From: Candidatus Gastranaerophilales bacterium
Lineage (GTDB): Bacteria; Cyanobacteriota; Vampirovibrionia; Gastranaerophilales; Gastranaerophilaceae
Direction: 5' to 3'
Length of the DNA: 64,000 nucleotides
Assembly: GCA_944326535.1 (NCBI GenBank)
Contig: CALVEJ010000102.1
Coordinates: 1,231 to 65,230, forward strand
Shown one piece after another: positions 1,517-51,373 of the stretch; the stretch's first letter is position 1; each line of letters starts with the position of its first letter. Below the pieces are notes generated by a model, which was given only the letters and a program-made list of their open reading frames with translations, ran no database searches and was not told the origin of the DNA. Made by a program: the position numbers and the translations under genes.

Positions 1517-1713
1517 TTAGGTTTTTAGTTACGGTATTATTCTCCACGGCAGTAAACGTGAAACAGGGTCAACATTTGTCCGCTCCGCGCCTAGGCTACG
1601 CTTGTAAGAGAGTATCTTGTTGGAATTGGTGACGTATTCCTCTGTGAGGATCCTAACGGAAGGCATCTAACCAATTCTGTCAAACTGAGTATAGGGCCTT
1701 TCTAAAAACCTAA
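1517..1713 (+). ncRNA. Candidate structured RNA A (about 197 nt) closed by a 12-bp stem, between tRNA-Lys and tRNA-Thr
   Basis: TTAGGTTTTTAG (1517-1528) pairs perfectly with CTAAAAACCTAA (1702-1713). There is an internal 7-bp helix GAATTGG/CCAATTC. The span has no ORF and no cloverleaf. Confidence 0.4.
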
Positions 1714-2195: not shown

Positions 2196-2301
2196 CAGAG
2201 TACTTTGTGGGTACCTCTTTCTGACCTAAGAAAGAGAGGGGCTTATAGGTTGAGCCTGGATCTACGTCAAGTAGCCGCACTCCAAATCAACCTACCAATT
2301 C
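2196..2301 (+). ncRNA. Candidate structured spacer RNA B between tRNA-Ser and tRNA-Leu
   Basis: Hairpin CCTCTTTCT..AGAAAGAGG, then an 8-bp helix TAGGTTGA/TCAACCTA enclosing about 33 nt. No ORF. Confidence 0.3.
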
Positions 2302-2386: not shown

Positions 2387-2407
2387 ACAACAACAGATTA
2401 GGTCGTC

Positions 2408-2641
2408 TTATTTAAGATCTCTATAGCTCTATAAGAGTAAAGGGTGCAGATGAAGGAGTTCGTTAGCTGCGTAAGGGTCTAATGACGAGTGTCGCGTTGG
2501 TGAGAAACTACTATAGCGGCTTTAAGTGCTTGAATTAAAGTGTCGAGTAAGACTATCTCACAATCGTCCAACGAAAAACTTGAAAACGAGGCGTCCAAGC
2601 AACGCCTACAATTCATGACTCCCTATAGAGATCTTAAATAA
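2408..2641 (+). ncRNA. Candidate structured RNA C (234 nt) closed by a perfect 19-bp stem
   Basis: TTATTTAAGATCTCTATAG (2408-2426) is the exact reverse complement of 2623-2641. Several internal hairpins are present (AGGCGT/ACGCCT, GTGAGA/TCTCAC, CTTTAA/TTAAAG). There is no ORF longer than 10 codons, and a strong terminator follows. Confidence 0.5.
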
Positions 2642-2655
2642 CCAAAACCCCCGCA

Positions 2656-2690
2656 AAGGCTACCGGATAAAACCGGTAGCCTTATTTTTT
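2656..2690 (+). terminator. Intrinsic terminator closing the tRNA/ncRNA cluster
   Basis: 11-bp stem AAGGCTACCGG/CCGGTAGCCTT, loop ATAAAA, then ATTTTTT. Confidence 0.8.
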
Positions 2691-4241: not shown

Positions 4242-7200
4242 ATGCAAGTGATTAAGCGTGACGGTACAAAGGTACCATTTAGAACCAGAAAGATTGAAAA
4301 TGCCATCCGTAAAGCCGGATGGGTTGATGGTGCTACAGTAAAGAATATCTCTCGAACCATTATGGAAAAAGCTGAACAGTTTGGAGAACTTTCAGTAGAA
4401 ACCATTCAAGATCTGGTTGAAGACCTTCTTATGCAGTCTGATTATAAGAAGGTTGCTAAGGAATACATTCGTTACCGTAAGGTACGAGAGATGATTCGTA
4501 ATTCTGAGAAAGTCAATGAATCCATCCTCAGACTCATTGATGATAAGAATGAATATCTGGCTACGGAGAACTCCAACAAGAACCATCGTCTTGGTTCTAC
4601 GCAGAGAGACTACATCGCCGGTGAAGTCTCGAAGGATATCTCTCTTCGACTCCTTATGCCGAAGGAAGCTGTCGAAGCCCATAAGAAAGGAATCATTCAC
4701 CTCCATGATATGGATTACTTCATCCAGCATATGTTCAACTGTTTTAGCTCTGCTACCCGTTTTGTAACGGATACAGGTGTTCGAGCATTCAAGGATTGTT
4801 TTGATGGTGAAGAAGTCACCGTTCTTGATCGAGATGGTCAATGGCAAAAGGCCATTGTTCGTAAGTACGGCAAGCAATCTATGCAGTATGTTACGTTGCA
4901 GTCTGGTCGCACCACTAAAGTTGTAAAGTGCACTCCGAATCACCGATGGATTCTTAAAGATGGTTCAGTAACCACTTCTTTGAAAGAAGGGGATCGGCTG
5001 TTCTGCCTTCAAGACTCTACTTACGTTCCTCCCGAATTAAATGAGTATTTTTGCTTAGGCTTCATCCTTGGTGACGGTTCAGACGCCAGTGCCGACAACC
5101 GTAAGTATTGGCAGTTGCGCTTGTGCAACGAGAAGATTAAATACAAAGATGTATTTTTGAAGAATGGTTTCGCTATCAGCGGTACGTCTGATAATGATGT
5201 TCATCTTCTTAAGAGAACAAAAATTTCTAAGCAAGACTTCTTGACGTATAAGATGTGGAATCTTCTTCGTCATGAAGATCTAATCCAGTTATTCCACGGA
5301 CTGTATGCTGCAGATGGAGCCAAAGACCGGAACTTTATTGCTACTTCAGATGAACGTCTGGTTGAGCTAATTCAAGACATCTCTGCTGTTGCGGGTTACC
5401 ACATCACTCGTTGCAATCTGCACTATAGAGATACCAATTTCAAAAAGGGAGCAAAGCTCTATGAAATTGGTCTGATGAAGAGTCAACCTGCTAATCGTAA
5501 CTGGGTTGTTAAAAAGATTGAGCTTGATAAGCATACGGACGCTTACGATGCTTGGTGTGTGGAAGAACCTGTAACGCATACCTTTACTCTTGATGGAGGC
5601 ATCGTTACCGGCAACTGCTGTTTGGTTAATCTCGAAGACATTCTTCAGAATGGAACCGTCATCAATGGAACCATGATAGAAAAGCCTCACAGCTTCTCTA
5701 CAGCTTGCAATATCGCTACTCAGGTTGCCGCCATCATTGCGTCCAACCAATACGGTGGTCAGACAATGTCTCTGGCCCATCTGGCTCCTTTTGTTGAAGT
5801 CAGTCGTCAGAAAATCAAGCAGGAAGCTATTGCTGATGGTTTGGCTGTCAGTCTTAATGAAGCAGCTTTGAATGAGTACATTGAGAGCCAAGTAAAGAGA
5901 GAGATTGCTCGTGGCGTACAGATGATTCAGTATCAGATCAATACTCTCAATAGCTCCAATGGTCAAACTCCCTTCATCACTATCTGGGCATATCTCAATG
6001 AAGCCAAGAACCAGCAGGAAAAGGAAGACTTGGCTCTCATCATTGAAGAAGTCTTCAAGCAGCGTATTCAGGGCGTGAAGAACGAGGTTGGTCAGTGGGT
6101 CTCTCCCGCCTTCCCCAAGATCATCTATGCCTTGGAAGAAGACAACTGCAAGAAAGGTACCGAATATTGGTGGCTTACCGAACTGGCAGCGAAGTGTACT
6201 GCCAAGCGATTAGTTCCCGACTATATCTCTGAGAAGAAGATGATTGAGCTCAAGGGAGCTTGCTTCCCTTCAATGGGTTGTCGTTCTTTCCTTTCTCCGT
6301 GGAAGGATAAGGACGGAAAGCTCAAGTTCTACGGAAGATTCAATCAAGGCGTTGTGACACTTAATCTCCCCTATATTGCTTTGCTGGCTTGGGAAGATGC
6401 GAAGATCGTTGATGAAGACATCGTAGACATCTTCTGGGATGTTCTTGATAAGTATGCTGAGATTGCTCATACCGCTCTTCAGGCTCGACATGCTCGTCTT
6501 CTCAATACGCCTGTAGAGACTTCTCCTCTTCATTGGATGCACGGAGCTATAGCAAGACTACCGAAGGGATCCAACTTCAATGAACTTCTCTTTGGTGGTT
6601 ATTCAACGATTTCCCTTGGTTATGCCGGTATCTATGAAACCGTGAAGGTTCTTATTGGTCAGTCTCATACGACTCCTGATGGCAACAGACTGGCTCTTCA
6701 GATCCTCAAGAAACTGAACGACTACTGTGACAAGTGGAAAGCTGAGGAGAATATCGGGTATTCCGTCTATGGTTCTCCAATTGAATCCACTACCTACAAG
6801 TTTGCTCAGGCTATCCAAAGAAACTTCGGAACTATTCCTGACATATCAGATCATGGATATATCACTAATAGCTACCATGTAAATGTCAGAGAGAAGATTG
6901 ATCCGTTCACTAAATTAAAGATTGAATCTGATTTTCAAGCTTTAAGCCAAGGTGGTTGTATCTCTTATATTGAAACAGCCAATCTTCAGAATAATATTCC
7001 TGCCGTTCTGGAAGTTATTAAGTTCATTTACGATAATATTATGTATGCTGAACTTAATACTAAGTCTGACTTCTGTCAGGTTTGCGGTTCAACAGATGAG
7101 ATTAAAATTGTTGAAGACAATGGCAAACTCGTTTGGGAATGTCAGTATTGTGGTAACCGAGATCAGTCCAAAATGAATGTTACAAGACGTACGTGCGGGT

Positions 7201-7292
7201 ACCTCGGAAGCAATTTCTGGAACCAAGGAAGAACTGAAGAGATTAAAGATCGCTACGTTCATCTTGGTGAAACAGAAAAGATGGAATTATGA
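4242..7292 (+). CDS. nrdD: Anaerobic ribonucleoside-triphosphate reductase (class III), interrupted by an intein
   Basis: N-terminal ATP-cone (VIKRDG..FR..KI), HLHDMD..NC|CLVNLEDI, C-terminal Zn ribbon CQVCG..CQYCGN and glycyl-radical motif RRTCGYLGS. The extein length of about 724 aa is typical for NrdD. Confidence 0.95.
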   Translation: MQVIKRDGTKVPFRTRKIENAIRKAGWVDGATVKNISRTIMEKAEQFGELSVETIQDLVEDLLMQSDYKKVAKEYIRYRKVREMIRNSEKVNESILRLIDDKNEYLATENSNKNHRLGSTQRDYIAGEVSKDISLRLLMPKEAVEAHKKGIIHLHDMDYFIQHMFNCFSSATRFVTDTGVRAFKDCFDGEEVTVLDRDGQWQKAIVRKYGKQSMQYVTLQSGRTTKVVKCTPNHRWILKDGSVTTSLKEGDRLFCLQDSTYVPPELNEYFCLGFILGDGSDASADNRKYWQLRLCNEKIKYKDVFLKNGFAISGTSDNDVHLLKRTKISKQDFLTYKMWNLLRHEDLIQLFHGLYAADGAKDRNFIATSDERLVELIQDISAVAGYHITRCNLHYRDTNFKKGAKLYEIGLMKSQPANRNWVVKKIELDKHTDAYDAWCVEEPVTHTFTLDGGIVTGNCCLVNLEDILQNGTVINGTMIEKPHSFSTACNIATQVAAIIASNQYGGQTMSLAHLAPFVEVSRQKIKQEAIADGLAVSLNEAALNEYIESQVKREIARGVQMIQYQINTLNSSNGQTPFITIWAYLNEAKNQQEKEDLALIIEEVFKQRIQGVKNEVGQWVSPAFPKIIYALEEDNCKKGTEYWWLTELAAKCTAKRLVPDYISEKKMIELKGACFPSMGCRSFLSPWKDKDGKLKFYGRFNQGVVTLNLPYIALLAWEDAKIVDEDIVDIFWDVLDKYAEIAHTALQARHARLLNTPVETSPLHWMHGAIARLPKGSNFNELLFGGYSTISLGYAGIYETVKVLIGQSHTTPDGNRLALQILKKLNDYCDKWKAEENIGYSVYGSPIESTTYKFAQAIQRNFGTIPDISDHGYITNSYHVNVREKIDPFTKLKIESDFQALSQGGCISYIETANLQNNIPAVLEVIKFIYDNIMYAELNTKSDFCQVCGSTDEIKIVEDNGKLVWECQYCGNRDQSKMNVTRRTCGYLGSNFWNQGRTEEIKDRYVHLGETEKMEL
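4740..5615 (+). mobile_element. Intein (292 aa) with a LAGLIDADG homing endonuclease domain inside NrdD
   Basis: It begins CFSSATRFVTDTG (block A), has TPNH (block B) and two LAGLIDADG motifs (LGFILGDGS, LYAADGAKD), and ends ..HTFTLDGGIVTGN followed by +1 Cys. Removing it restores HMFN-CCLVNL. Confidence 0.85.
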
Positions 7293-9444: not shown

Positions 9445-12400
9445 TTAGACAAGCAATAGTCCGAAGAACAATGCCGCAGGATGCATAAGCAATCCTCTGA
9501 ACATCATGTCCCAAGTAAGAGAATAAGAAATATCTCCTGACAGGATCTTGGAGAGTAGATTTTCAGAAAGAGGTGTACCACCCAAGAGATTGGTAGGCAA
9601 TACACTTTCCATGATTGTACCCATGATGGTTCGAGATGGATTCAGATGCATCACCATAAGAGAAGCTGCAATCATACGGTATTTATAGGTTAAAAACCAA
9701 GTAAGCCCTGTACGATTCAACCAGTCTCTGGCTCTACCGGCAAGCTGGTCATAGTCCACAAAAAGTGTAGAGACCAAGTTACGAGCAATGCTATGGTCAA
9801 TAGGAACAGGACTGAACTTATTGGAATGTTCCGTAAGATACCAATACCCGGCGCACTTGGCTGCCCAGTCAGACATATTGACGATCTCGTTCATTGTCTG
9901 ATAGGTCATGGAGTTCTTGGTCATCAAAATGTTACTAACAGCAGTTTTGATTTGATCTCCCTTCCCTAAGGTATCCAGCATGGCATTGAATTTTTCATCA
10001 ATGACCGCTTTAGCATAGTTGGCACCTTCATATTCAGCACCTTCCGCACTGATGGTTGAGTATTCACCTTCTTTAATCAGACGATAGATAGGAAGATGTC
10101 TGATTTCCTTATCAATTTTCTTTGCTTGTTCCTGATAAGAAGCCTTCACCTTTGGATCAGTAGCATTATTTGCTTTGAACAGCAATTCTCTATGCTTCTT
10201 CACAAGTCTGTTGTACCTATTGGTAAAGACAACGGCATCGGTATAGTACTTGGCAATCATTGGAAGAGGCATACCAAAGACAAGCCACAGAAGAAGGGTA
10301 TTTGAAAGGGCATTCACCAAAGGAACAACACCTGATCGAATGACAATCGTATCTCTGGCATATGAGACAACGATGTTGAGAACTTCTTCAGCGCGCCCAA
10401 CTTTATAAAGAGCCTGCTTACCCAGAACAGCTTCCAAACACTTAACCATTTGCTTTTGCATGTTCTCCGGGAAGAAGAAACTGTTGTCCCAAAGATCCGT
10501 AAGCTTAGGACGAGGATACCCAAGATAGGTATTCACTTCGTCAGCTAAGAGATAGAGATGATCTCCAAAGTACTTCTTGATTTCTTGCTTGGTTCCCCAA
10601 TCAAGACGAGCCAAAGCCTTCTTGATATTGGGATCTTCTAAGCGAGTTACATCAATGAAGTTCTTCTTATAGTCTTCAGGAGCATTGTTGTACGTATCCC
10701 AAGCCATCTTGACGGCTTGTTTGTTGATGTCAAGAGCAGCAAGTTCTCGGTCCTGTCTGGTCTTCATCTGAGCCATGGCTGAAAAGAAGTCCACACCATC
10801 TTCAATGAGTGCTCTGTCTTCCGGCATAACGGAACGTTCATAGCCGATAACAAAGCCTTCATCGTCATAGATGGGAATCAGTCCATTGCCTGTAGCCTCC
10901 TTATCAAAGTTCTTGTAGATGTCTTCATAAAGAGACGAGTCTTGAACAATAGTACCTTCCATTTCATTGCGTGAAAGGTTCTTATGAAGCATTCCCTTAG
11001 AGGTTTGATTGATGCCTTGGAAGAGACCTTCCTGGTATTCCTGTTCCAGAGGATGCTTACAATACATACGAAAGACCGGTTCAGAAGGATCAATGTTGGA
11101 GTTCTGGTATCGACCCAGGTTTGTATATCCCTGTTTCTCATAGAACTTAACCTGATCTCTGGTTGCGTAGACAAGTCTTCCTGTAGCACTGGCTCCCTTA
11201 GGCATCCAACCAAAGAGATAGTTGTACGGATAGTACTTGTTCTTCGTTTGAGCAACTTTTCTCTCTTCCGCTTCCATGACTTCTTTGTACTGACGAATCA
11301 TGCTCAACATAGCATCCTTGTCAGTCTTAAAGAGATCCTGCATAAAGGATCTGTCGCCTTCAGTGAAGTTCTTGATAGAAAGAAGAGAAATCATTTGACC
11401 CAGAAGAGGAACAATTCCTTCCGGAGCTTCCACCATGGCTACTGAGGTTTCACCAAGAAGACGAGAAATAGCCTCGGGAGAAGTCAGAAGATTATGTCCA
11501 GCCTGACGATTGCCTGTCAGATAGTTGGCAAGCTGTCTGCATTTCTGGATGTAGAGATCACCATACTCAGAAGAAAGTTCCTTGATTTGGTTCCCTACTC
11601 TATCAATCTCAAGATCCAGTTCGCTTTCGTTGGTAAGAACCTTCTGAGCAACTTTTTCATCCAAAGTATGGATACCTGTTCTTAAGATGGTTCTATGAAG
11701 GAATCTCTTGAGATGAGTAGTAATCTTATGGTTTTTGAACTGCTTCTTAAGAAGCTCCGGATCCTCTTCAAGAGTATCCTTTCTCCATCTATCTAAGTAA
11801 CCTTTGACTCGCTTGAAGGAAACTTCTACATCAGTTAAAGAAGGTGTTCTACCATAGATGTCTTTAACTAAAGAAGCCACCTTGGTACTTTGAAACTGAT
11901 TTAGTCCTTTACGAATAGTTTCAGTAGTTTGGAAGTAACCAAGAATAGGATAATCATTGATGGTCTTGAACATCTCTCTTAAGTTTTCACCGAAGTCTTT
12001 ATTAAAGAGAGAGGTAAGACCGGCAATACCTTCTGCAAGTATCCTGTCTACAGACTTAAAGAAGTTTTTAGTATCCAAGTCAATATCAGTACCCTTTGCC
12101 AGCTGTTCTCCTTCTTCGAGAACAACCTTTAAGGAATCAGATATTGTCTTGTTATCTGCTAATTCCTTCGTCCATTTGGTAAGAATCTCATCAGACAGAT
12201 TACCTAAAGATTCTAAAGGATCTGTAATCTTAAGTTGTTTCTTAGTTGGTTCATTTATCTGAACCTTGCCAATAGCATTTGAAACACTATTTTGTGTTAG
12301 AGCCAAAGCTAAGAAGATAGCACTTTCCTTTGCTTCCGGATTGAAGGAATCTGGAAGTTCATTTGGCAAACGTTCATAGAAAGTTGAAGAACCATCCAAC

Positions 12401-15400
12401 AACTTATAGATTGCAACTGAATCATCAAGTTCCTCCTTAGTAGCAGCAATTGGGTCAGAGATAAAACTATATTCATTCAGTTTATCCATAAGTTCTTGCT
12501 GCATTCTAAACAGTAAGTATTCATCTTTCTGGGTCATAATCCCACGAGTCATGAATGCTACTACCGCATCAGCAAAATCTTCTGGATTCTCCAAGAAATT
12601 TTTTGCATGTGAAAGAATTAACTCTCTATAAGAGAGAATCTTAGCCAGTTCTTCCTTATATGCCTGTCCGACTTTTTGTTGGGAAAGATTCTTGCCCCAA
12701 TAAATGCCCTTCTGAGAAACAGTGTCGAAAAGGACTCTGGATCTGGTAATGTTTCTCAGCGCCTTAAAAAAATCTGATTTCCTAAAGAATCCCTTTCCTG
12801 GTTCCAGACTGGTTCCGGCACGAACGATATTCTTGGTAACAGATCTACGCTTTAAGCGATCATCAGGATTAATCTGCTGTTCAGCATTCACCAAGATGAG
12901 CGTATTGGTTCCCCAATAAGTGAGGAAATCAACCGGATCAGCAAAGTGCTCTCTATAGGCTTGATCAAAGGAAAGAGCTTTATCCGTTGGAGAATTCGTA
13001 ACAATACGAATAAGCTTCTTCCAAGCCTTCTGAGCTGCTGTAACAACTTGTTTAACAAGATCCCAGAAGCGCTTTCTATGCTGTTCCCCATCCTTCAACT
13101 GACGTTCTGCAATGGCATTCATCAGTCTGCCATTGGTACAGATATAAGCAATGGCTTCATCCATCCGTTCAGCAGGATCTTTAATTCCGGAAAGAATTTC
13201 ACGAAGTCGAACAATCTGCGGAGCAGGAGTCTTTCCTTGCCAAGCATCTTCATTCATGAAGTCTTCAAGAAGACGTTCCAGATTTTGGATGGCACTCTTC
13301 TGTTCATTCGTTAAAGAATCACTACCGTTGTAGTACATATGAAGCATGTATCCAACAGCAGCATGTGTGGCTTCATGAGCAATCAGTTCAGCGATTTCTG
13401 GTTGTCTTGCATCATAAATGGTACTTTCATCCAGAATATAGATACGAGATTCTCCGTTCTCCTGAACGTAGATGGCTTTTTGCTTAGGATTGGTGAACTT
13501 GTTTCTTACCTTGGCAGGAAGATTATTCTTGGATCCAGCAAAGAACACACGAGTATTCTCAGGAAGAATGGCTTGGATCTTGTTATAGAGAGATCTGTAG
13601 ACACCCTCGGGAGTCTTGTTTTTCCCGAGAGTATCAAAGGCATTCTTAATAATGTCTCGATCAACTTCTTGCAGTGCAGGCGATTTGTTCTGTGAAAAGA
13701 AAGGTTCTTTTTCAGTAACTTCAAAAAGATCCTTTAGCTCTTTATAGATACCATCATCAGTAAGCTCAAAGTATCCGGAATTACCTTCATTACGTCCGGT
13801 AAGACGATTTAACTTTTCGACTTGTTGATCTGTAAGTTTATACTTCTTAACAATCTCAGGAATAACCTCTTCTCTGGCAAGACGATTTAAGAAGCCAACC
13901 ATCATATCCTCAAAGTCTGCAAAGGCTTTAACTCCAGGAAGAGCGTTGTACTTAGCAAGAAGCTTTTCAGCCTTTGAGACAGAGATAGGATTCTTTTCCA
14001 AGTAAGCAACTTCAGGACCACTCATGTGTTGAATGGCTTTAGGAATCCTATTTAATGTTTCATGCTGGATCTCTTCATTCAAAACAACTGTAGCTAGTTC
14101 ATCAAAGAGATTGCGCAGATCATAAGTAAGTTGCGCCTTGATGTCTTTATCGTTTGTTTTGTAGTCTCGACTGTGAATACGTCCACCACGAGCCTCTTTA
14201 CGAAGAATGTTCATATCATCAATGAACGCCTTCGGAGAGAAGAAATCCTGGATAGAAGCATGAAGTCTCTTATAGGATTCAGTCTGTTCAGTCTTGTCTC
14301 CGCTTCGAACATCTCCGCTAAGAGTAGAACCGGAAAGAAAGTTGGCAACAGAAACAGTCACTGCTTCTATTGGATCCAGATTCTCAAGGTTCTTGTATCT
14401 CTTCTTGAGATCCTTACCTACTCGAACCAGCGTGTTCTCGACAACCTTAAAGGCAAGCTGTTTCTGTCCCAATGAAGAGGACTCATTTAACAGCGTAGCC
14501 ATGGTTTCCAGGTAACCGGGTGGAACATACACACCGTCAAAGACTTTCTTGGCACCCTTAAGTCCTTCACGAGCAAGAGCTGACATGAAGTACATGATGG
14601 TGGAAGCGTCACCCATAGCCTGAACGGTAAGAGGTGAACCGGATACACCGGAAGAAATGATCTTTGAATGAGAAGGATAGATAGACAGTCCTGTCTTAGA
14701 ATCCTTCACTAAAGTATTCTGATTGGTGATGTAATTTTCTTTTCGAACGAAGGCTGTGACACCGCTCGGGAAGTCATACCGAGGTGAAAACCTGTTGATA
14801 GTCTGCTGAACTTTATACAGTGCCTTCTGGGTCAGATTTCTAAAGTCTCCCCCTGCTTTGTTAAGTTCTTCCGTTTGAACACCTTGAGACACAATCGTAA
14901 GAATTTCACTGACTGTGGCAATAAGTTGAGCACCTCTCATAGCATCTTCACCCAGCACTTCAGTCACAGCTGAATGAGCAGGTTCACCAAAGACAGGAAT
15001 GAAAAGCTCTGTCAAGTGATCAATACCTGAAGGAGTCACTGTGAAGTTACGAATAGAGTCTTCTTCAATGAACTCATGCTCTTCCTTGTCATAGTGACCA
15101 ATCATCCCTCCTTGAGATTCAGCCTCACTGTCAATAGCCTCAGGAGCAGGATAGTTAGGAACAAGATGCTTTACTTCACTGGCAGGGATACTGTCTCTAA
15201 CAGAGAAAGCTCCTGTTCTTTTGTTATATGCAAAACGGAAGAGTTCTTTTAAGAGCTTAAGTTCTTCATTAACAGTCTTCTTCGATCTGCCATAAGCAAT
15301 ATCTTTAAGATCATTAGAAATATTCTGGTAGATGTCTGTTAAGAGCTGATCAACTAAGTTTCTACTGGATCCAGTAACAGCAGAACCATATGGAATGATG

Positions 15401-18400
15401 GTTGTAAGTACCTTAGACAGTTCTCTGTCAAAAGTAAGAGGATCACTGGTCTTAGCAAGACTAGCAGTTAAAACTTCTGTCTTACCGCTGGCAGCAGAGT
15501 AAGTTAACTTAATCGGATTAAAGGAAACCTTTCCTCTAAGACGATAGATCTCAATGATGTGATGAAGAACTGTAAGAAAGTGTTTTGCTTGTGCCTTCTC
15601 CGCAGCAGTCTTTTTACCTTTTAAGGTATTGATGGCATTCATCATGCGAAGCTTAATCTTTTCAGGAATAGCTTCTTTAGCCACTTCACTATGCAAGTCA
15701 TTACCGCCGGTACCCAAAACCTTACTAGCTAACGAATCTGCCGTAGAAGCTCCTTGAGTAGTAGCGTTGACGCCATAGAAGTTACCGGTTTTATAGGAAG
15801 TCTTCGCCCAGCGACGAGTAAAAGCTCCCATAGAAGAACCAAGGAAGGTATTGATGTTTGATGGACCGTCACTCTTACCGTCAATTTCCAAGGTTAAGTT
15901 GGAATGGAAGTTTCCATGATCGACCTCTGAAGCGTTCAAATAACGAACCACTTCGACCAAGCCATTGATGCCGTAAATGTCATTGACTTGTAAGCCGATA
16001 TCCTGCTTATTGGCAGCATCCATGACCTGCTGAACAATCTCGTCATAAGCGATGTATTCATTGCCCTTCTTTCGCAATTCAGGGGCAACACCCTGGATCA
16101 TCTGGTAGAAGTCGGCAAAGTCTTCGGTCTTTAGGAGACTCTTGACATGCTCAATAAAGGCATCAGCTTGTTTAAGAGATTCCTTAACAGACTTATCGCT
16201 AACCTTGGCTCCCAATGACTGAGCAAGAGCAAGTTTCCAGTCGGAAAGGACATTCTCGTCCTTTAGATTGATATTTGGATTGTCTGCATAACTGATGGCA
16301 ACACGGAGAATTTTGTTTCCTTGAGGTGTAGCAGCACCAATCTGCATCACACGACCACTACGAACTGCGGCATTGTCATAGAAGACAGGAACATCTTCGA
16401 CATTTCGATTGGTAGCCTCACCAACAATCGCAATTTCTTCCAGCTGTTCAAAAGCAAGACGAGCATTGATCTGTCTGCCCATCTCGCTTTCATAAGTATT
16501 ACCGTTGTACAACCCTCGATTAGAATCATTGGCTCCACCAATACCTAAGAATGGAGCATATGGAGCAACGTTTCGTTCTTCATAGTCAGCAGGATGCCCG
16601 GCAATACGGAAAAGATTGAAAAGCGGTCTGTCTACTCGCCCTTCCACCATATTCTCTCTACGAATGTTGGCTACAGCAGCAGGACGCAATCTTGCATTGA
16701 TATGCAACATGTAGGGCACAGCTTCAAAGGCTCTGTCTGACCAGGTGTTCTTATAGTTTGGATCCAGAAGGGCTTCAAGAATATCTCCCTTGGCTCTAAA
16801 TAGATCCTTATATGCCTTATCAACACTGACACCCTTGATGCTTTCACCTGATTCGGTACCGTCGTCCATCTTGATCGGGAAGTCCCGAACATGAAGAGCA
16901 CCTTGATTAATCAAAGCTCTTGCTGTTCTGAGAGCCAGGAAGCCAAGAATTTCACTGTACTCCTTCTCGGTTGCATCGTTGCTAATAGCTACTCCAAGCA
17001 TCTTACGGATACTTGTCATAATGGTCTGAGTTGCCATTGGTTCAATAACCTGAGAAAGAATGTTCTCACCCAAGGCTGCCCAGAGAGTCTCCGGATCATA
17101 ACCATACCTCTGCATTTCGGTTTCATTCAGCATATGAGGAATGTCACCGAGTCTGGCTAAAGACTGAATACTGGCAAGCAGACAGATTTCCGGAATATTT
17201 TTCTTAAACTTTTCAAGAATCTTTGAGTTAGTTTTTTCGAAAAAGTCTTTAACTGCTTGAGGAGTATCCTCATCAAACTCAAGAGAAAAATTGCTGTAGA
17301 AGAAAGGTGCAAAGGTACCCTTGGGATTAGTCATTCCCATAATCTGATCTGCCAAGGACCCATGCTTCATCAGGTAGTTAATTTCTTCATCCGGAGAAGA
17401 AACCTTTCCATTAAAGAAAGAGTCTGTGTTCTGATCCAGAGGAGAATGCTTTCTACGGATTCTTTTGCCTTTTTTATCTACTTCTTCTCTTGTATAGAGC
17501 TTTTCCGTGATGATGGCAGAGTTGGTAAATTTGTTCTCTCTGAAGAGGTTTTTAACGTTATTAGGATCTTTGATGAAGTCTCTGAGAGCCTGAACAGGAG
17601 ATTCAGCATCCCACAAAAGAAGAGGACGCTTAACAGGAACAATGAGAGAAGACAGAAACTCTCCCATAACTTCCTTAAAACGCTGTATTACATTTGCGGG
17701 AGCATAAGGTTTTGCTTGTCTATCCGTTGAATCCCAGAAGTACCCTTGTTTCTCAAGAAGAGTAGGATCCAGTGTCTCAGCATGACGAGTAGGAGCAAAA
17801 CCAAGACCTCTTTCAAGAGCTTGTCTTACAATGTCTCGTTTCTCTTCTTGAGTAGTTCCTTCCCAGTTATAAGTATCACGCTCATCTTCTGTGAGAGGAA
17901 TATTTACACCATTCCCATAGATAATGCCATTATTTACTTCTACTGGAGCCACTCTATTATCGCTAAGCTTTACATTAAACACATCCCCAGTAGAACGAGC
18001 CAAAGCTTTATTTATTCTCTGTTGTGCTGCTGTACTGTCTTCTGTAGAAGCATTTTGGTTCAACAGGGTATTTGCTATTTCCTTGGGAACCTTAAAAGTT
18101 TTCCCATTGCGTTCAATATAGATATCGCCATTCTTTCTATAGCTGAATGCTTTACTGCCATCACTGGCCAAACCTGCCTCTTGTTCAGGATTTGCTTTAA
18201 TTTCTTCAGAAGCTACTTGTTCAAAGCTTTCAGTGAAACCAACAGCATCGAAATCTTTATCTGTAAAACCTGCAACTTCTGTAATAGAAATTGGATTATT
18301 AGATGTTTGAGCAGAAAACTGAGACTGTTCTGTCGTAGGTTCTGCCGTAGAAGTTTCTTCGGAAGATTCAGTAGCAATAGATTTATTCTCCTGGTTCAAA

Positions 18401-20520
18401 GGAACAGAAGTATTTTCTGTTAAAGGAGAAGCAGAAGAAATGGTACTTGTTGTAGTCTTAGAAGTATCAGCAGTTGTTCCTTGCGCTACTGAAGAAGCAT
18501 TAACGGTCGAAGTACCAGGGGCAACAGGAGAAATTCTTGAGGTGTTAGCTGTATTTCTATTGGCCGTAGTCTTATCTGACACATTTTTGTTACGGTCAAA
18601 CAATAAATTCAGCCCTCTCTGGATAGTAGAGTTTTTAGAAGAAAATCCTCTTAACTGAACTTGATCTCCCTTGGGTCGCTTAAAAAATTCTTTCTTAGCA
18701 CGATCAAGATTGGTTGTAGCCAAGGAAGAGAAATACTGCGCTTCACCTAATAATTCAGTCTCATCAAGAGGTGTACCAGATTTGTGATTAGCACGTTGAG
18801 TTGTAATCATGTCGTGCAAGAACCATTGAACACCTCGTTCAAATTCATTCAGAGACTTTAAAGTATTTTCTTTTGTCTTCTTGAGTTCAGCCTTACCGTC
18901 GTCAGGGGTAGCTGAAACAATTTCTTTGTCTCTTTGAATCTGATCCAAGATGTTGACTGCATCATCTGAAGTAATTGCATATCCATTGTTATTGGGTCTT
19001 CTCTTGAAGATGGCTTCGTTATAACCGGGAAGGTCTCCAATGATCGCAGTTAAGTTTCTATCCTGTGTGCTCCCCTGCACGATAGGAGGCATGGTATTTC
19101 CAGCCGCTTCAACAGCACGCTGTGCGGCATCAACAGAAGCTGTAGCTCTTTGTTCAATCTTACCGATGCTGTTGGATCTTGAATCCCAAGCACGTCGAGC
19201 AACACCGGCAATACCGCTACCAACTTCTCCGATGGCATCAATAGCAGATTGAGGAGCCATTTGAAGACCTGTAACACCGAGACCGCCAACAAGACCTTCA
19301 GCCGCACTTTGACCAAGATCTTCAACAACATTCTTACGAGCATCAAGGAAGTCTTTAGTCGCAACGTTCTGGTGATATTGAGTAGCACCTTCGGTGATGG
19401 TTTCTTCCAGTGGTTCAGTAAGACCTTCGCCAAGACGTTGTGTCCAGCGTCCGCTACGTTCAAATGGTTTAGCCAATTTGGCTGTCATAGCGCCTGTAAT
19501 GGCGGCTGTAGCAGCTGTACGAATACCAGCCTGTTCAGCGGCGGCAAAAGCCATGTCTCTTCTGGCTTGCTCTTGCGCCTGTGGTTGAGGAATACCTTGC
19601 TTCATTAACTCTGTAACACGAGAGTTAAATTCAGGGGAATGATCTATCAAGGTAGTGATAGGCGTACTAAGCCCTTCTTGGAGTTGTTGTGCATAAGCAC
19701 CACCACCTTCAACAGCACCTGATGCCGCCATCCAAGGAGCGCTCTTAGCAAGATATTGTGTAAATTTATTGGAAGCATCGGCAACATCAACAGCCGTATC
19801 AACTGCATCCGGAACAGTCTTAGCCGCAACAGCCTTTAAGCCTTTAGCCGCTGCACCAATACCGGCAGAAGCAATCCAAGACGGAACCATGGAACCAAGA
19901 GCTTGAGATCCCATGTTAAGAAGCATTCCGCCGTCTTCCAGAATATTGCCTGCCCCACCAAAGAAGTTTCGGGCAATATGACGAGCATTAGCTACAACTT
20001 CAGAAGTGCCATTAGCAAGATCCTCTCTACGCTGACGATCTGTTCTATTCTTTAATGCTTGCTGTCTGGCAGCATAGGCTCGCTTTTGAGCATCCTGTGC
20101 AGAAGAAGCCCAACTATCGGCTCCTTCATAAATAGCTTGCGAACCACTGGATAACCATTCAGCGAGTTCTTTAGATTTTTCACTACCGAGCGCACCACCA
20201 ACACCTGCAAGACCGGCGAAGAGATCGACTGTACCGCCAAAAGCACCGGCACCAAGATTGATCATGGAATCTTGAATTGCTTCTCCAAGAGAACGAGCAG
20301 CTGCTGCTCCTTCAGCGGAAGCTTGCTTACCTAAAGCTGCGGCTTGCTGTGTATAGGCATTAAAAAGAGCATCTCCATACTTCTCTCTAAAAGTAATTGG
20401 AGAATTTTTATATTCTTCATTCATCTGCTCTTCAGTAGCAGTGACATCTTCGCCAACACCAGCGGTAAAAAGAGGATTCTCTGTATAAATATTTGTATTA
20501 GGCATAAAACAAAAAGCCAT
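9445..20520 (-). CDS. Virion-encapsidated RNA polymerase (N4 gp50-like giant protein, 3,691 aa)
   Basis: T7-family motif A-like LEIDGKSDG (Asp about residue 1547, nt 15880-15882). Motif B-like R-ELS-K-VLTTIIP-YGS has the R-x3-K-x7-YG spacing. Candidate motif C is GDAS or VFDG at about residues 1970-1995. It has an Ala/Gly-rich N-terminus and hydrophobic C-terminal segments. Its size and position (last gene of the late block) match N4 gp50. An alternative start is the ATG at 20505. Confidence 0.9.
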   Translation of the reverse strand: MAFCFMPNTNIYTENPLFTAGVGEDVTATEEQMNEEYKNSPITFREKYGDALFNAYTQQAAALGKQASAEGAAAARSLGEAIQDSMINLGAGAFGGTVDLFAGLAGVGGALGSEKSKELAEWLSSGSQAIYEGADSWASSAQDAQKRAYAARQQALKNRTDRQRREDLANGTSEVVANARHIARNFFGGAGNILEDGGMLLNMGSQALGSMVPSWIASAGIGAAAKGLKAVAAKTVPDAVDTAVDVADASNKFTQYLAKSAPWMAASGAVEGGGAYAQQLQEGLSTPITTLIDHSPEFNSRVTELMKQGIPQPQAQEQARRDMAFAAAEQAGIRTAATAAITGAMTAKLAKPFERSGRWTQRLGEGLTEPLEETITEGATQYHQNVATKDFLDARKNVVEDLGQSAAEGLVGGLGVTGLQMAPQSAIDAIGEVGSGIAGVARRAWDSRSNSIGKIEQRATASVDAAQRAVEAAGNTMPPIVQGSTQDRNLTAIIGDLPGYNEAIFKRRPNNNGYAITSDDAVNILDQIQRDKEIVSATPDDGKAELKKTKENTLKSLNEFERGVQWFLHDMITTQRANHKSGTPLDETELLGEAQYFSSLATTNLDRAKKEFFKRPKGDQVQLRGFSSKNSTIQRGLNLLFDRNKNVSDKTTANRNTANTSRISPVAPGTSTVNASSVAQGTTADTSKTTTSTISSASPLTENTSVPLNQENKSIATESSEETSTAEPTTEQSQFSAQTSNNPISITEVAGFTDKDFDAVGFTESFEQVASEEIKANPEQEAGLASDGSKAFSYRKNGDIYIERNGKTFKVPKEIANTLLNQNASTEDSTAAQQRINKALARSTGDVFNVKLSDNRVAPVEVNNGIIYGNGVNIPLTEDERDTYNWEGTTQEEKRDIVRQALERGLGFAPTRHAETLDPTLLEKQGYFWDSTDRQAKPYAPANVIQRFKEVMGEFLSSLIVPVKRPLLLWDAESPVQALRDFIKDPNNVKNLFRENKFTNSAIITEKLYTREEVDKKGKRIRRKHSPLDQNTDSFFNGKVSSPDEEINYLMKHGSLADQIMGMTNPKGTFAPFFYSNFSLEFDEDTPQAVKDFFEKTNSKILEKFKKNIPEICLLASIQSLARLGDIPHMLNETEMQRYGYDPETLWAALGENILSQVIEPMATQTIMTSIRKMLGVAISNDATEKEYSEILGFLALRTARALINQGALHVRDFPIKMDDGTESGESIKGVSVDKAYKDLFRAKGDILEALLDPNYKNTWSDRAFEAVPYMLHINARLRPAAVANIRRENMVEGRVDRPLFNLFRIAGHPADYEERNVAPYAPFLGIGGANDSNRGLYNGNTYESEMGRQINARLAFEQLEEIAIVGEATNRNVEDVPVFYDNAAVRSGRVMQIGAATPQGNKILRVAISYADNPNINLKDENVLSDWKLALAQSLGAKVSDKSVKESLKQADAFIEHVKSLLKTEDFADFYQMIQGVAPELRKKGNEYIAYDEIVQQVMDAANKQDIGLQVNDIYGINGLVEVVRYLNASEVDHGNFHSNLTLEIDGKSDGPSNINTFLGSSMGAFTRRWAKTSYKTGNFYGVNATTQGASTADSLASKVLGTGGNDLHSEVAKEAIPEKIKLRMMNAINTLKGKKTAAEKAQAKHFLTVLHHIIEIYRLRGKVSFNPIKLTYSAASGKTEVLTASLAKTSDPLTFDRELSKVLTTIIPYGSAVTGSSRNLVDQLLTDIYQNISNDLKDIAYGRSKKTVNEELKLLKELFRFAYNKRTGAFSVRDSIPASEVKHLVPNYPAPEAIDSEAESQGGMIGHYDKEEHEFIEEDSIRNFTVTPSGIDHLTELFIPVFGEPAHSAVTEVLGEDAMRGAQLIATVSEILTIVSQGVQTEELNKAGGDFRNLTQKALYKVQQTINRFSPRYDFPSGVTAFVRKENYITNQNTLVKDSKTGLSIYPSHSKIISSGVSGSPLTVQAMGDASTIMYFMSALAREGLKGAKKVFDGVYVPPGYLETMATLLNESSSLGQKQLAFKVVENTLVRVGKDLKKRYKNLENLDPIEAVTVSVANFLSGSTLSGDVRSGDKTEQTESYKRLHASIQDFFSPKAFIDDMNILRKEARGGRIHSRDYKTNDKDIKAQLTYDLRNLFDELATVVLNEEIQHETLNRIPKAIQHMSGPEVAYLEKNPISVSKAEKLLAKYNALPGVKAFADFEDMMVGFLNRLAREEVIPEIVKKYKLTDQQVEKLNRLTGRNEGNSGYFELTDDGIYKELKDLFEVTEKEPFFSQNKSPALQEVDRDIIKNAFDTLGKNKTPEGVYRSLYNKIQAILPENTRVFFAGSKNNLPAKVRNKFTNPKQKAIYVQENGESRIYILDESTIYDARQPEIAELIAHEATHAAVGYMLHMYYNGSDSLTNEQKSAIQNLERLLEDFMNEDAWQGKTPAPQIVRLREILSGIKDPAERMDEAIAYICTNGRLMNAIAERQLKDGEQHRKRFWDLVKQVVTAAQKAWKKLIRIVTNSPTDKALSFDQAYREHFADPVDFLTYWGTNTLILVNAEQQINPDDRLKRRSVTKNIVRAGTSLEPGKGFFRKSDFFKALRNITRSRVLFDTVSQKGIYWGKNLSQQKVGQAYKEELAKILSYRELILSHAKNFLENPEDFADAVVAFMTRGIMTQKDEYLLFRMQQELMDKLNEYSFISDPIAATKEELDDSVAIYKLLDGSSTFYERLPNELPDSFNPEAKESAIFLALALTQNSVSNAIGKVQINEPTKKQLKITDPLESLGNLSDEILTKWTKELADNKTISDSLKVVLEEGEQLAKGTDIDLDTKNFFKSVDRILAEGIAGLTSLFNKDFGENLREMFKTINDYPILGYFQTTETIRKGLNQFQSTKVASLVKDIYGRTPSLTDVEVSFKRVKGYLDRWRKDTLEEDPELLKKQFKNHKITTHLKRFLHRTILRTGIHTLDEKVAQKVLTNESELDLEIDRVGNQIKELSSEYGDLYIQKCRQLANYLTGNRQAGHNLLTSPEAISRLLGETSVAMVEAPEGIVPLLGQMISLLSIKNFTEGDRSFMQDLFKTDKDAMLSMIRQYKEVMEAEERKVAQTKNKYYPYNYLFGWMPKGASATGRLVYATRDQVKFYEKQGYTNLGRYQNSNIDPSEPVFRMYCKHPLEQEYQEGLFQGINQTSKGMLHKNLSRNEMEGTIVQDSSLYEDIYKNFDKEATGNGLIPIYDDEGFVIGYERSVMPEDRALIEDGVDFFSAMAQMKTRQDRELAALDINKQAVKMAWDTYNNAPEDYKKNFIDVTRLEDPNIKKALARLDWGTKQEIKKYFGDHLYLLADEVNTYLGYPRPKLTDLWDNSFFFPENMQKQMVKCLEAVLGKQALYKVGRAEEVLNIVVSYARDTIVIRSGVVPLVNALSNTLLLWLVFGMPLPMIAKYYTDAVVFTNRYNRLVKKHRELLFKANNATDPKVKASYQEQAKKIDKEIRHLPIYRLIKEGEYSTISAEGAEYEGANYAKAVIDEKFNAMLDTLGKGDQIKTAVSNILMTKNSMTYQTMNEIVNMSDWAAKCAGYWYLTEHSNKFSPVPIDHSIARNLVSTLFVDYDQLAGRARDWLNRTGLTWFLTYKYRMIAASLMVMHLNPSRTIMGTIMESVLPTNLLGGTPLSENLLSKILSGDISYSLTWDMMFRGLLMHPAALFFGLLLV

Positions 20521-44326: not shown

Positions 44327-45915
44327 ACGATATAACTGTCTCTTGTATACACTTCCAATTCCGGTTCTTCGTAATACACATCTCCTGCTGTAGGAACAAT
44401 AATCTGTTGAGTACTTTCACTTGGTTCCCAAGGACTCAAATAACCCAGCATGGAGATGGTATCAATGCAGTCATCATGACCTTTAATACCGCTTACAGTA
44501 CAGAGTTTTAACTGCTGCATGAACTGTCCCATAATCATAGAATCTTTCATCTGCTCAGGAAAATAAATCTTTCCTGCTTTGAACCAGGGAACAACCAAAT
44601 TAAATCTTGTTAATTTATCATTTACCGGTCTGATACCCGGACTTCCCTTTGTCGTAGCGAAAGTAAACCAGATATTTCTCGCTATCTGTTCTCTCTGCAA
44701 CCAGGGAATGAATCCTCCCTGTTGTCCTGTCACTTCCACTCCCACCGCCTGCGGATGATATTGCTGAACAAGCTTGAATAAGGCATCCACATTCTTATCC
44801 ATCGTCTGTTTCTCACAGACACCATCCACCCAAAACCACTCTTTATTAGCGTTATAAGCCCAAACACTGATTACCGAGTAATCGGCAGTCTCTTTAGCTG
44901 AAGTAGCAAAGTCTGTTGTGATGTAGAAGTTGAAGTTATACCGATTCTGAAGCAACAAATGACGGTCATACCAGCGAATATCTGCATCCTGCACCAGACG
45001 TTCATCATCCGATGAGATACGAAGCATCAGTTCCTGATAAAAAGCTGCTAATTTCCCAGTACCCACAGCCGTATCGTACTGATCTTTCACATAGTCGTAG
45101 GTGAATCTATCAGGCCATGCTCCTTGGAACTCTTCTCTACTGCAAGGAAAGCGTTCACACACAGGCCATACGTTCACATCCCACTCACCGGATTCCACAG
45201 CTTCGATGATGATGTCATCCTTATTGAACGGAGTACCATTGAAGATGATCTTGTGTCTGGTTGGATCCAAGGCATAGTTGACGCCCTTATAGACCGTATC
45301 CTTGATGAGGTTCATCACGGTCTTAGATTTTGAAGCTTCGTCTGAAATCAAGTCGTCCAGCACACAAAGAACAGGACGCTTACCGAAGATCTTGGTACCT
45401 CGAAGACCTGTCGTAGCACCGAAGAGCTTCACTCCCATCTTTTCACCCTTGATATTGGTGAACTCTAGATAGGAGTCAGTGAACTTAGCTTCAGGAATGT
45501 ACTTCTTCAGGAAGTCTGATCTCTCGTATCGGTACTCAATGTTCTTTCTGGCACTCTTGGCACCGTTCTCCATGGAGTCTGAGACATAGATCATTCCTTC
45601 TACCTTCCCAAAGCCGGGAATGTTATGGAATACCGCAAGATAAAGCGTGAAATATTCCATAAACAAAGTAGTTTTTGCAGCTCCGCGAAAACATAGATTA
45701 ACGATTCTCTTGGATCCCTGAGTAAGCTTGTCCAGCATCTTTAGATGAACGGGGGGAGTCTTATTGCTTTCTCCTTCTTCTCCGTTCACAAGCTTAATGA
45801 AGTTCATAAAACTGAGAGCAAACTCAGTAGGATGATAATCAGAGGAGTTTAAAAAGGAATAATCTACTTGATCCAGCCAAGCATCTACATCCTGTTTAAT
45901 CATTCTTGCCATCAA
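44323..45915 (-). CDS. terL: Terminase large subunit
   Basis: Walker A-like CFRGAAKTT and Walker B-like PVLCVLDDLISDE. The C-terminal nuclease half has YITTDFATS and HDDCIDT acidic motifs. Confidence 0.9.
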   Translation of the reverse strand: MMARMIKQDVDAWLDQVDYSFLNSSDYHPTEFALSFMNFIKLVNGEEGESNKTPPVHLKMLDKLTQGSKRIVNLCFRGAAKTTLFMEYFTLYLAVFHNIPGFGKVEGMIYVSDSMENGAKSARKNIEYRYERSDFLKKYIPEAKFTDSYLEFTNIKGEKMGVKLFGATTGLRGTKIFGKRPVLCVLDDLISDEASKSKTVMNLIKDTVYKGVNYALDPTRHKIIFNGTPFNKDDIIIEAVESGEWDVNVWPVCERFPCSREEFQGAWPDRFTYDYVKDQYDTAVGTGKLAAFYQELMLRISSDDERLVQDADIRWYDRHLLLQNRYNFNFYITTDFATSAKETADYSVISVWAYNANKEWFWVDGVCEKQTMDKNVDALFKLVQQYHPQAVGVEVTGQQGGFIPWLQREQIARNIWFTFATTKGSPGIRPVNDKLTRFNLVVPWFKAGKIYFPEQMKDSMIMGQFMQQLKLCTVSGIKGHDDCIDTISMLGYLSPWEPSESTQQIIVPTAGDVYYEEPELEVYTRDSYIV

Positions 45916-46364
45916 TAAGCTCCCTCAGCAACCTGACAGCACTGAATCCCCATATCCCGGTACATCTTCACTACCCTATCTCTATCCTCAAAAGCCAGTT
46001 GAATCTGATATCCCTTCTTTTGAAGCTTCTCAATCCATTCCTTCTTAATCTCTACATCAGGTCTGTAGTCATGATTCTTTCTCATATAAAGACCATCAGG
46101 TTCAGGACCAATATTTTCTCTAAACCACTTGAGAGTATCTTCTCTGGTTCTCTCTGGTCTTCCGGTAATACAAATCAGCTTAGAGCTAGGAACTAAGAAG
46201 GAAGCATAAGCTACAAAGATCTGAGCAATAGGCTTGATGATTTCATCCTTGTCCACATCTTCATAGAATTTATCCCAGTTCTTCTCTTCACCCTGGATCC
46301 AATGGAGTCTATGGCTAAGATCAGCCAAAGTACCGTCAATATCAAACACCACCGCTTCAATCAT
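45912..46364 (-). CDS. HAD-family phosphatase of the T4 Pnkp 3'-phosphatase type (stand-alone)
   Basis: DxDGT motif (VFDIDGTLA), ITGRPE, YMRKNHDYRPDVEIKKEWI and FEDRDRVVKMYRDMGIQCCQV mirror the Pnkp C-terminal domain pattern. Confidence 0.65.
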   Translation of the reverse strand: MIEAVVFDIDGTLADLSHRLHWIQGEEKNWDKFYEDVDKDEIIKPIAQIFVAYASFLVPSSKLICITGRPERTREDTLKWFRENIGPEPDGLYMRKNHDYRPDVEIKKEWIEKLQKKGYQIQLAFEDRDRVVKMYRDMGIQCCQVAEGAY

Positions 46365-47058: not shown

Positions 47059-47103
47059 ATTATATAAATAAAAAAAGAAGGAAGACCAATACAATCTTCC
47101 TTC
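47059..47103 (-). promoter_or_regulatory. Module C: hairpin, T-run and TATAAT box upstream of the late block
   Basis: The minus strand reads GAAGGAAGA-loop-TCTTCCTTC, then TTTTTTTATTTATATAAT, then a 5' leader hairpin AGGTATC/GATACCT, then the ATG. Confidence 0.5.
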
Positions 47104-47148
47104 CAATAGAGATCATGAAAACACCATGTCCTTATGAAGAACATCCAT

Positions 47149-47196
47149 ATTATATATAAAAAAGAAGGAAGATCAACTCTATATGATCTTCCTTCT
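47149..47196 (-). promoter_or_regulatory. Module B: 12-bp hairpin terminator merged with a TTGATC-N16-TATAAT promoter-like element
   Basis: Stem AGAAGGAAGATC/GATCTTCCTTCT (47163-47174 and 47185-47196), a T-run, and a -10 box at 47149-47154 (minus strand). Confidence 0.5.
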
Positions 47197-47244
47197 CAGC
47201 CCAGTCAACCCACATTTAGAGGAATGTTCTTAAAGAACACTTAT

Positions 47245-47318
47245 ATTATATATAAATAAAATAAGAAGTCAATACATATAAATAAAAAAAAAAAAGAGAG
47301 TCTACTTCTAGACTCTCT
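47245..47318 (-). promoter_or_regulatory. Module A: 10-bp hairpin plus T12 terminator followed by TTGACT-N16-TATAAT
   Basis: Stem AGAGAGTCTA/TAGACTCTCT (47295-47318), A12 on the plus strand (47284-47295), -35 at 47267-47272 and -10 at 47245-47250 (minus strand). Confidence 0.5.
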
Positions 47319-47379
47319 TCTACTTCCATATCTTTATATATCCCTTCATAACCAGGGTCTAACAGATAAAAGACATAGA

Positions 47380-47460
47380 GAAGTATTCTATATATAAACA
47401 ATAAGTAATCTTTCTTCTTGGTTCTTATATATATAAATAAATAAATATATATATAAATAT
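47380..47460. repeat. AT-rich (TA)n/TAAA-type low-complexity tract with further TTTATATATA boxes
   Basis: Read directly: ..TCTATATATAAACAATAAG.. and ..TTCTTATATATATAAATAAATAAATATATATATAAATATAC.. Confidence 0.8.
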
Positions 47461-47487
47461 ACTTGGAAACCTAAGGAAGGAAGGGGG

Positions 47488-47502
47488 GAGTACTACGTAC
47501 TC
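47488..47502 (+). promoter_or_regulatory. Candidate vRNAP-type hairpin promoter (6-bp stem, 3-nt loop)
   Basis: GAGTAC-TAC-GTACTC. N4 early promoters are 5-7 bp / 3-nt-loop DNA hairpins with a central purine. This one sits about 270 nt upstream of the first plus-strand gene. Confidence 0.3.
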
Positions 47503-47690
47503 TATAGTGATTTAGAACCCTTGTCAATAGGGATAGATACCTATATGACTGGATCCAGAGGAAGAAGGATATAGGGACCCTTATGGAGATTCTATGCGCC
47601 GGGAATGAAGGAAGGGAACCTTTGAGATTTGTGCTAATTGGATATCGAAGTAGTGAGATGGAGGGTGGGACTCCTTTGCCGAGGAGCTAT

Positions 47691-47700
47691 CCCCCCCCCC
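47691..47700. repeat. C10 homopolymer in the non-coding region upstream of the first early gene
   Basis: Read directly: GAGCTAT-CCCCCCCCCC-ATTTCAC. Confidence 0.9.
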
Positions 47701-51349: not shown

Positions 51350-51373
51350 TAACCGTTGATCAAGGGAGAAAGT

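Follow-up and report, generated by a model that had tools for sequence, protein, structure and literature searches.

The stretch of DNA analysed here (the window, 64 kb) represents an N4-like phage. It encodes an ORF of virion RNA polymerase size on the minus strand (3691 aa, 9445-20520), a major capsid protein that shares 57-59% identity with its counterparts in N4-like phages of Rhizobium, Pseudomonas and Achromobacter, and a T7-like RNA polymerase in a single ORF of 741 aa (51356-53581); the RNAPII of N4 is a heterodimer of 269 + 404 aa (PMC4496689). On the plus strand, positions 1265-2386 hold seven tRNA genes (ARAGORN, Rfam), the last of which is tRNA-Leu(UAA) (2302-2386; ARAGORN, and 58 bits with the Rfam tRNA model). 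Directly 3' of this gene lies the element under study, hereafter E2, followed by an intrinsic terminator (2656-2690) and by the next gene, which starts at 2708. The terminator, composed of an 11-bp stem with seven G-C pairs (2656-2683) and a subsequent ATTTTTT, is the only one between tRNA-Leu and the next gene, and none separates tRNA-Leu from E2. E2 thus occupies the position of a 3' external transcribed spacer (3'ETS): it is on the tRNA strand, downstream of the last tRNA and upstream of the operon terminator, and no other terminator intervenes. The suggestion that E2 is the last product of the tRNA operon fits this anatomy. The original prediction had also credited the element with its own terminator. 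The terminator is real, but it is conserved across three lineages of related phages (A, B and C) and identical at loci that contain and loci that lack E2, and it therefore belongs to the tRNA operon and not to E2.

Several other features of the window were recorded alongside. The minus strand (45912-46361) encodes a 149-aa protein with a match to HAD_PNKP, the phosphatase domain of polynucleotide kinase-phosphatase (E = 1e-28); it may serve in RNA repair, the phage having tRNAs of its own. The anaerobic ribonucleotide reductase NrdD (4242-7292) measures 1016 aa in the window versus 726-727 aa in the related contigs L001 and L004; the extra segment of ~290 aa follows ~residue 165 and starts with a Cys, and in contig L015 the gene is split around a 180-aa ORF. 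Judged by this layout the extra segment looks intein-like, and Pfam reported no intein domain in NrdD at E<0.01. An AU-rich, loopless 21-bp palindrome with 90% complementarity (57126-57167) lies directly upstream of an HNH/NUMOD4/AP2 endonuclease gene (57187-57729). Finally, a non-coding, AT-rich and repeat-rich region of 650 nt (47100-47760) with several GAAGGAAGA..TCTTCCTTC hairpins probably corresponds to the genome ends or to an early promoter region.

The core of E2 is delimited by two arms, 2408-2426 (TTATTTAAGATCTCTATAG) and 2623-2641, that are complementary at 19 of 19 positions with 196 nt between them, exactly as had been claimed. Shuffled sequences contained on average 0.06 matches to the 19-nt arm, and no other perfect inverted repeat of at least 17 nt with arms more than 100 nt apart occurs in the 64 kb. 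The 5' arm carries the motif TATTTAAG in forward orientation and the 3' arm carries it on the minus strand, pointing inward. Junctions of filled and empty sites (see below) assign to the same insert a further 12 nt on the left, outside the perfect repeat (2396-2407, GATTAGGTCGTC), and a right tail (2642-2648, CCAAAAC, which reads CCAAAATC in relatives). The left 12 nt are the most variable part of the cassette, and their allele in contigs L004, L010 and L015 (GATTAGATCTGC) forms a small hairpin, CAGAU-UAG-AUCUG, in the fold of L004. The tail is followed by CCCCGCAA (2649-2656), the relic of the 5' strand of the first helix of another module, ins116, which is described below.

Folding of 241 nt around the core (2405-2645) on the plus strand yielded a z-score of -3.6 relative to shuffles, whereas the interior alone (2427-2622) scored -0.15 on the plus strand and +0.14 on the minus strand, from which it follows that the closing stem is the source of the thermodynamic signal. 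The 19-bp perfect duplex is present in every predicted fold of the window and of L004. The interior has a branched predicted fold, and the four or more local hairpins that had been described are seen in the minimum-energy fold, but the interior that harbours them is no more stable than shuffled sequence. The proposed rod-like shape did not hold, as the minimum-energy and the centroid folds are both multibranched.

E2 belongs to no known RNA family. A search of positions 2387-2655 against Rfam 15 at the gathering threshold gave no match to any family, be it 6S, Y RNA/YrlA, group I intron, ribozyme, riboswitch or ToxI, the operon yielded tRNAs only, and the same was true of four related loci. 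When the cutoff was relaxed to E-values up to 10, E2 had only a 19-bit match to a snoRNA model, consistent with chance, while matches to YrlA fell on tRNAs. 6S RNAs are rods with a closing stem, a large central bubble and a terminal stem, and Y RNAs (YrlA) combine a Ro/Rsr-binding stem with a tRNA-like domain and usually have an rsr gene close by. The likeness to 6S-like regulators is contradicted by the lack of an RF00013 match and by the multibranched fold, and that to Y-RNA-like regulators by the lack of a YrlA match on E2 and of a TROVE/Rsr domain in the 30 proteins scanned with Pfam. Inspection by eye for a group I intron, RNase P RNA, tmRNA, a hammerhead or a retron ncRNA revealed no core motifs, and Rfam and ARAGORN gave these candidates no support. 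Neither a reverse transcriptase nor a transposase was found among the 30 Pfam-scanned proteins.

We reached relatives of the locus, all metagenomic contigs of the same clade, through proteins homologous to the products of two small flanking ORFs; the 91-aa ORF led to a single cluster of homologues, and a search of IMG/VR for relatives with the 84-aa ORF found none. Within lineage A, whose members are 91-98% identical to the window, E2 is present in L001, L004, L010/L011 and L015 and absent from L030/L031 and L032/L033. The presence/absence comparison that had been proposed as a check on the element is thus positive: the empty loci fall into two distinct backgrounds and match carriers at 96-100% identity in the flanks. 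Filled sites read ...CCAATAACAACA / GATTAGATC(TG/GT)C - 19-bp arm - 196 nt - 19-bp arm - CCAAAATC / CCCCGCAAGC..., and empty sites read ...AACAACA / C(CC/TT)CGCAAGC.... The insert measures 254 nt (2396-2648 in the window), its ends lie 12 nt to the left and 7-8 nt to the right of the perfect repeat, and its termini in relatives, GATT...AATC, pair over 4 bp only. No target-site duplication accompanies it, the left flank being AACAACA and the right flank CCCCGC (CCCCGCAAGC). All three combinations of E2 and ins116 occur among the loci compared. Together with the empty sites, these combinations show that E2 is dispensable in nature, so that any function would be accessory at best; by this comparison of loci, E2 is an optional, lineage-specific cassette and not a core regulator.

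An inverted-repeat-bounded insert of this kind could be a MITE-like miniature mobile DNA that is mobilised in trans and whose RNA is incidental. The perfect 19-bp repeat of terminal type, the likewise inverted insert termini (GATT...AATC), the polymorphism among near-identical genomes (L030-L033 empty versus the window, L001, L004, L010 and L015 filled) and the lack of any ORF with homologues all speak for such an element. Yet a target-site duplication is absent, and the perfect repeat is subterminal, lying inside the ends of the indel. E2 is also a single copy: no second one is found within the window, it always sits at the same locus, and blastn detected nothing in 50,697 phage records (INPHARED), in PLSDB plasmids or in 5,426 E. 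coli genomes. The exact 19-mer arm is absent from IMG/VR, and its 6 matches in 185,579 GTDB species genomes and 5 in JGI metagenomes are all lone arms, those in GTDB being located within unrelated bacterial genomes; match numbers in these two collections are about what chance predicts for a 19-mer. No transposase accompanies the element among the scanned proteins. Hence, of four MITE features that we considered, presence/absence is observed, target-site duplication and multicopy occurrence are not, and the repeat lies 12 and 7-8 nt inside the ends. The inverted repeat that underlay the earlier mention of a MITE stands, and since the indel ends fall outside the repeat and no database searched holds a second copy, E2 is not a classical MITE. 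We consider a MITE-like origin possible but unlikely.

Sequence diversity within E2 is close to zero. Five independent carriers differ at two sites of the 234-nt core: a T/C polymorphism at 2548, which is the sole one in the interior, and a C in place of T in the 3' arm of L001. This second variant produces an A.C mismatch in the plus-strand RNA but would give a G.U pair on the minus strand, and so counts against a plus-strand RNA. The core diverges from the window by 0.4-0.9%, compared with 10-35% for the E2 leader and tail, 2-5% for tRNA-Leu and 0.6-8.6% for the neighbouring ORFs; ins116 differs by ~8% between L015 and L004. Read from these alignments, the low diversity would reflect constraint acting strongly on the core as a whole, or else a cassette that recombination has spread recently. 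Recent spread is favoured over constraint, because the tRNAs are more variable than E2. Near-zero diversity next to diverged flanks is also what a recent spread of mobile DNA would leave behind, and as a pattern of sequence variation it fits a selfish, recently mobile DNA element as well.

We also considered whether E2 encodes a small protein. The statement that it contains no ORF of more than 10 codons holds for ATG starts on the plus strand but not beyond, in that GTG-initiated ORFs of 30 and 33 aa exist on the plus strand and an ATG-initiated ORF of 45 aa on the minus strand (2616-2479), the latter preceded by GGGAG (GGGAGTC ahead of the ATG). The polymorphism at 2548 leaves the encoded residue unaltered in the 45-aa frame and in the 33-aa frame alike, but a single synonymous site amounts to no evidence. 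Among 1.84 billion representative proteins, none is a credible homologue of the 45-aa ORF, the 33-aa ORF has none in phages, a PHROGs search returned nothing, and the gene callers of the source assemblies placed no gene at E2 in any contig. Moreover, the Shine-Dalgarno spacing of the minus-strand ORF is just 2 nt, and this ORF is antisense to the tRNA operon and has no evident promoter. A coding role, be it for the minus-strand ORF or for one of the plus-strand GTG ORFs, is therefore highly improbable.

Another alternative is that E2 is a transcription unit of its own, in which TATTTAAG in the 5' arm would act as a promoter for the T7-like RNA polymerase and transcription would end at the resident terminator. 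The original prediction had drawn attention to an 11-mer of the 5' arm that recurs in a repeat-rich intergenic region, which lies downstream of the polymerase gene. This 11-mer, CTTATTTAAGA, does recur, though at 53655-53665 and hence one base off the position given, and the TATTTAAG core is found there three times, as claimed (53627, 53657 and 53815). As a specific link between E2 and that region, the sharing of CTTATTTAAGA was rejected: by chance, a 234-nt element should have ~1.8 12-mers in common with 128 kb of sequence (both strands counted). The region itself consists of a strong terminator 3' of the polymerase gene, followed by 250 nt with TAACGTTCTGGGTG direct repeats and a hairpin, GAACGTT-ATCT-AACGTTC.

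What lends weight to a promoter is the distribution of the motif TATTTA[AT]. Across 5.3 kb of plus-strand intergenic DNA it occurs 11 times in forward (2409, 4184, 7759, 48369, 53627, 53657, 53815, 56400, 60691, 60715 and 63655) and 2 times in reverse orientation, as opposed to 28 and 28 times genome-wide, and TATTTA is the most biased among the permutations of T4A2 hexamers, though A exceeds T in these regions. This strand bias identifies TATTTA[AT] as a real directional motif. Three copies follow the terminator of the gene for the 741-aa polymerase, and the promoter of N4 RNAPII is short and AT-rich, spanning -7 to +2 (PMC4496689). On these sequence grounds TATTTA[AT] could be the promoter core for the phage's own RNA polymerase. 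On the other hand, lineage B does not conserve the copy at 4184, which forms part of a terminator hairpin loop whose stem covaries, and at 53815 the motif runs into a ribosome-binding context, TTAAGGGAG, that recurs. Middle promoters vary widely among N4-like phages: those of LUZ7 are GC-rich hairpins, whereas N4 has two consensus motifs in which transcription starts at a T (PMC9163698). In E2 the box faces inward on both arms, including its minus-strand copy, and the terminator at which such a unit would end is that of the operon. A transcript that starts within the arm would retain only ~12 bp of the stem, so that a promoter of its own would leave the perfect 19-bp repeat unexplained. We regard an independent transcription unit as rather improbable. 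A T7-like promoter proposed for the minus strand (CTATAGGGAG, upstream of the 45-aa ORF) was discarded because it is not a repeated sequence in the genome, with 54 matches versus 50 expected when two mismatches are allowed.

E2 is not the only non-tRNA module in this slot or in this operon. In relatives, a 116-nt non-coding module, ins116, is located between E2 and the terminator; it contains a pseudoknot, is present in all relatives and has been deleted from the window except for the CCCCGCAA relic. In lineage B (L006, L007 and L013), two tandem 48-nt pseudoknot motifs after tRNA-Leu take the place of E2. In lineage C (L016-L018) the slot is occupied by a hairpin pair resembling the sp2 spacer described below and by an unrelated non-coding stretch of ~190 nt (E3). 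Homology between E2 and E3 was entertained on account of a shared 10-mer, TTCGTTAGCT, and rejected when their local alignment proved not significant against shuffles. The pseudoknot motif of ~48 nt (GUAUGUCUG..CAGAU CCGUA-AUGGGC-UACGG UUUA CCCA) is predicted to form two hairpins and an H-type pseudoknot. It is present in one copy in lineage A (L001, 4405-4520) and in two tandem copies in lineage B (L006, 3562-3660), 94% of its cells are paired versus 30-44% in slid controls, three compensatory pairs were observed, and Rfam returned no match to it. By analogy, the tandem repeats are reminiscent of type III antitoxin RNAs.

Within the operon, the 197-nt spacer between tRNA-Lys and tRNA-Thr (E1, 1517-1713, plus strand) is closed by a perfect 12-bp stem. 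E1 is 100% identical in most relatives, while the L005 allele is 79% identical and features six compensatory pairs and many G.U pairs; the compensatory pairs indicate that E1 is a structured plus-strand RNA. All that lineage B has at the place of E1 is an AU-rich hairpin of 20 bp, with a terminator and a TATAAT box ahead of it. The sequence TATAATCC upstream of E1 was evaluated as a repeated promoter and dismissed, as it shows no enrichment. A second structured spacer, sp2 (106 nt, 2196-2301, plus strand), separates tRNA-Ser from tRNA-Leu. It starts with a conserved AGAGUAC..GUACC, its second stem covaries (CUCUUUCU/AGAAAGAG in the window and CACUUUCUG/CAGAAAGUG in relatives, as read from the sequences), and the loop of this stem measures 6 nt in the window, ~27 nt in L016 and ~60 nt in L004 and L015. 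In lineage C, sp2 is found after and not before tRNA-Leu.

Two further rearrangements were noted in the tRNA clusters of relatives. In L001 (3257-3944), the gene of an HNH endonuclease (162 aa) has come in along with a complete tRNA-Ser that differs from the old one, of which the 3' part remains (ccgtcggtcagcaatgatccgtgggttcgaatcccactctctccgcca); this arrangement reads as a homing-type replacement within the cluster. In L004 (2494-2628), and also in L005 and L014, a 135-nt insert after tRNA-Lys comprises a long hairpin and a tRNA-like element with an acceptor stem, a mini D arm, an anticodon-type arm (loop AAGAUCU), a T arm (GGGUUCGACUCCC) and a 3' CCA, which neither ARAGORN nor Rfam calls. 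Helix-bounded modules that are gained and lost appear to be the rule in this operon, and by analogy with them E2 would be the largest.

Taken together, we assign a probability of about one half to the reading that E2 is a dispensable, recently spread, helix-insulated non-coding cassette of 254 bp in the 3' external transcribed spacer of a phage tRNA operon, from which it would be released as an RNA by RNase III. The view of E2 as a non-coding element of the tRNA transcription unit with a duplex of RNase III length is borne out as to position and stem length. Since E2 lies on the tRNA strand and no terminator intervenes upstream, it is expected to be transcribed with the tRNAs by read-through. 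In the precursor, the 19-bp stem would close off the insert, such that 3' maturation of tRNA-Leu and the terminator hairpin would proceed undisturbed. An RNase III substrate is a transcript in which the RNA duplex runs without interruption for roughly two turns, or about 20 bp. In this model the E2 stem is probably cleaved by the host RNase III, which would separate the tRNA part from the terminator part and free an RNA of ~200 nt. The released RNA may be a stable accessory RNA, for example a decoy or a sponge, or may do nothing. E2 would belong to a set of several helix-bounded spacer modules that can stand in for one another in the tRNA clusters of the clade, and it would have spread recently between close relatives by recombination at one locus.

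Known systems offer partial parallels to such a cassette. The 3'ETS-leuZ RNA of E. coli, which RNase E releases, is ~50 nt long with the terminator included and functions as a sponge that depends on Hfq. This 3' spacer RNA of the glyW-cysT-leuZ operon is cited in PMC5222698 and PMC8383071. Like 3'ETS-leuZ, E2 is situated between the last tRNA, a tRNA-Leu in both cases, and an intrinsic terminator, and it would be processed from a tRNA precursor; unlike it, E2 is an optional element of 254 nt with a 19-bp closing duplex and no known partner. The tRNA cluster of phage T4 gives rise to two stable RNAs of ~100-200 nt whose function is unknown, species 1 and species 2, from the same precursor as the tRNAs. 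E2 resembles them as a structured RNA candidate among phage tRNA genes that would mature from the same precursor, but sequence similarity is lacking: blastn of E2, E1, sp2 and the modules of three relatives against the 50,697 phage records found nothing. We know of no description of a perfect long closing duplex in the T4 species RNAs.

Stalks of the kind that E2 is predicted to form operate in rRNA operons and in the early mRNA of phage T7, where distant complements form a duplex and cleavage by RNase III frees the bracketed RNA. The arms of E2 are likewise distant complements that would bracket an RNA; in contrast to these stalks, the RNA bracketed by E2 is dispensable and has no known role, and its cleavage is putative. 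Among MITEs with effects at the RNA level, the Correia elements of Neisseria occur in many copies and generate a TA target duplication. E2 shares with them its small size, its non-coding nature, the bounding inverted repeat, the presence/absence polymorphism, a transcript that would form an RNase III hairpin and possible promoter boxes, directed outward or inward, in its ends, and it differs in being single-copy and confined to one locus, in having no target-site duplication and in the position of the indel ends outside the repeat.

Phage tRNA clusters are usually read as lists of tRNAs, but the spacers in this clade are long, structured and modular. At least five non-tRNA modules have been independently gained, lost or swapped, and E2 is the largest and best bounded of them. 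Natural E2+ and E2- phages with almost identical genomes exist in the same sample series, which makes a comparison of competition or host range straightforward. If E2 proved to have a phenotype, a class of accessory RNA cargo would be added to phage tRNA operons; if it had none, it would be a clean neutral or selfish insertion that is tolerated because the stem insulates it. It is doubtful, and to our judgement quite improbable, that E2 goes as far as either of two stronger versions: a functional accessory RNA that was gained as a self-insulating cassette and is released by RNase III, for instance as a decoy or sponge against a host RNA-targeting defence, or else the first duplication-free, hairpin-bounded non-coding element that spreads between lytic phages and is mobilised in trans. 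If either were true, the tRNA operons of phages would serve as docking sites for exchangeable non-coding RNA cargo.
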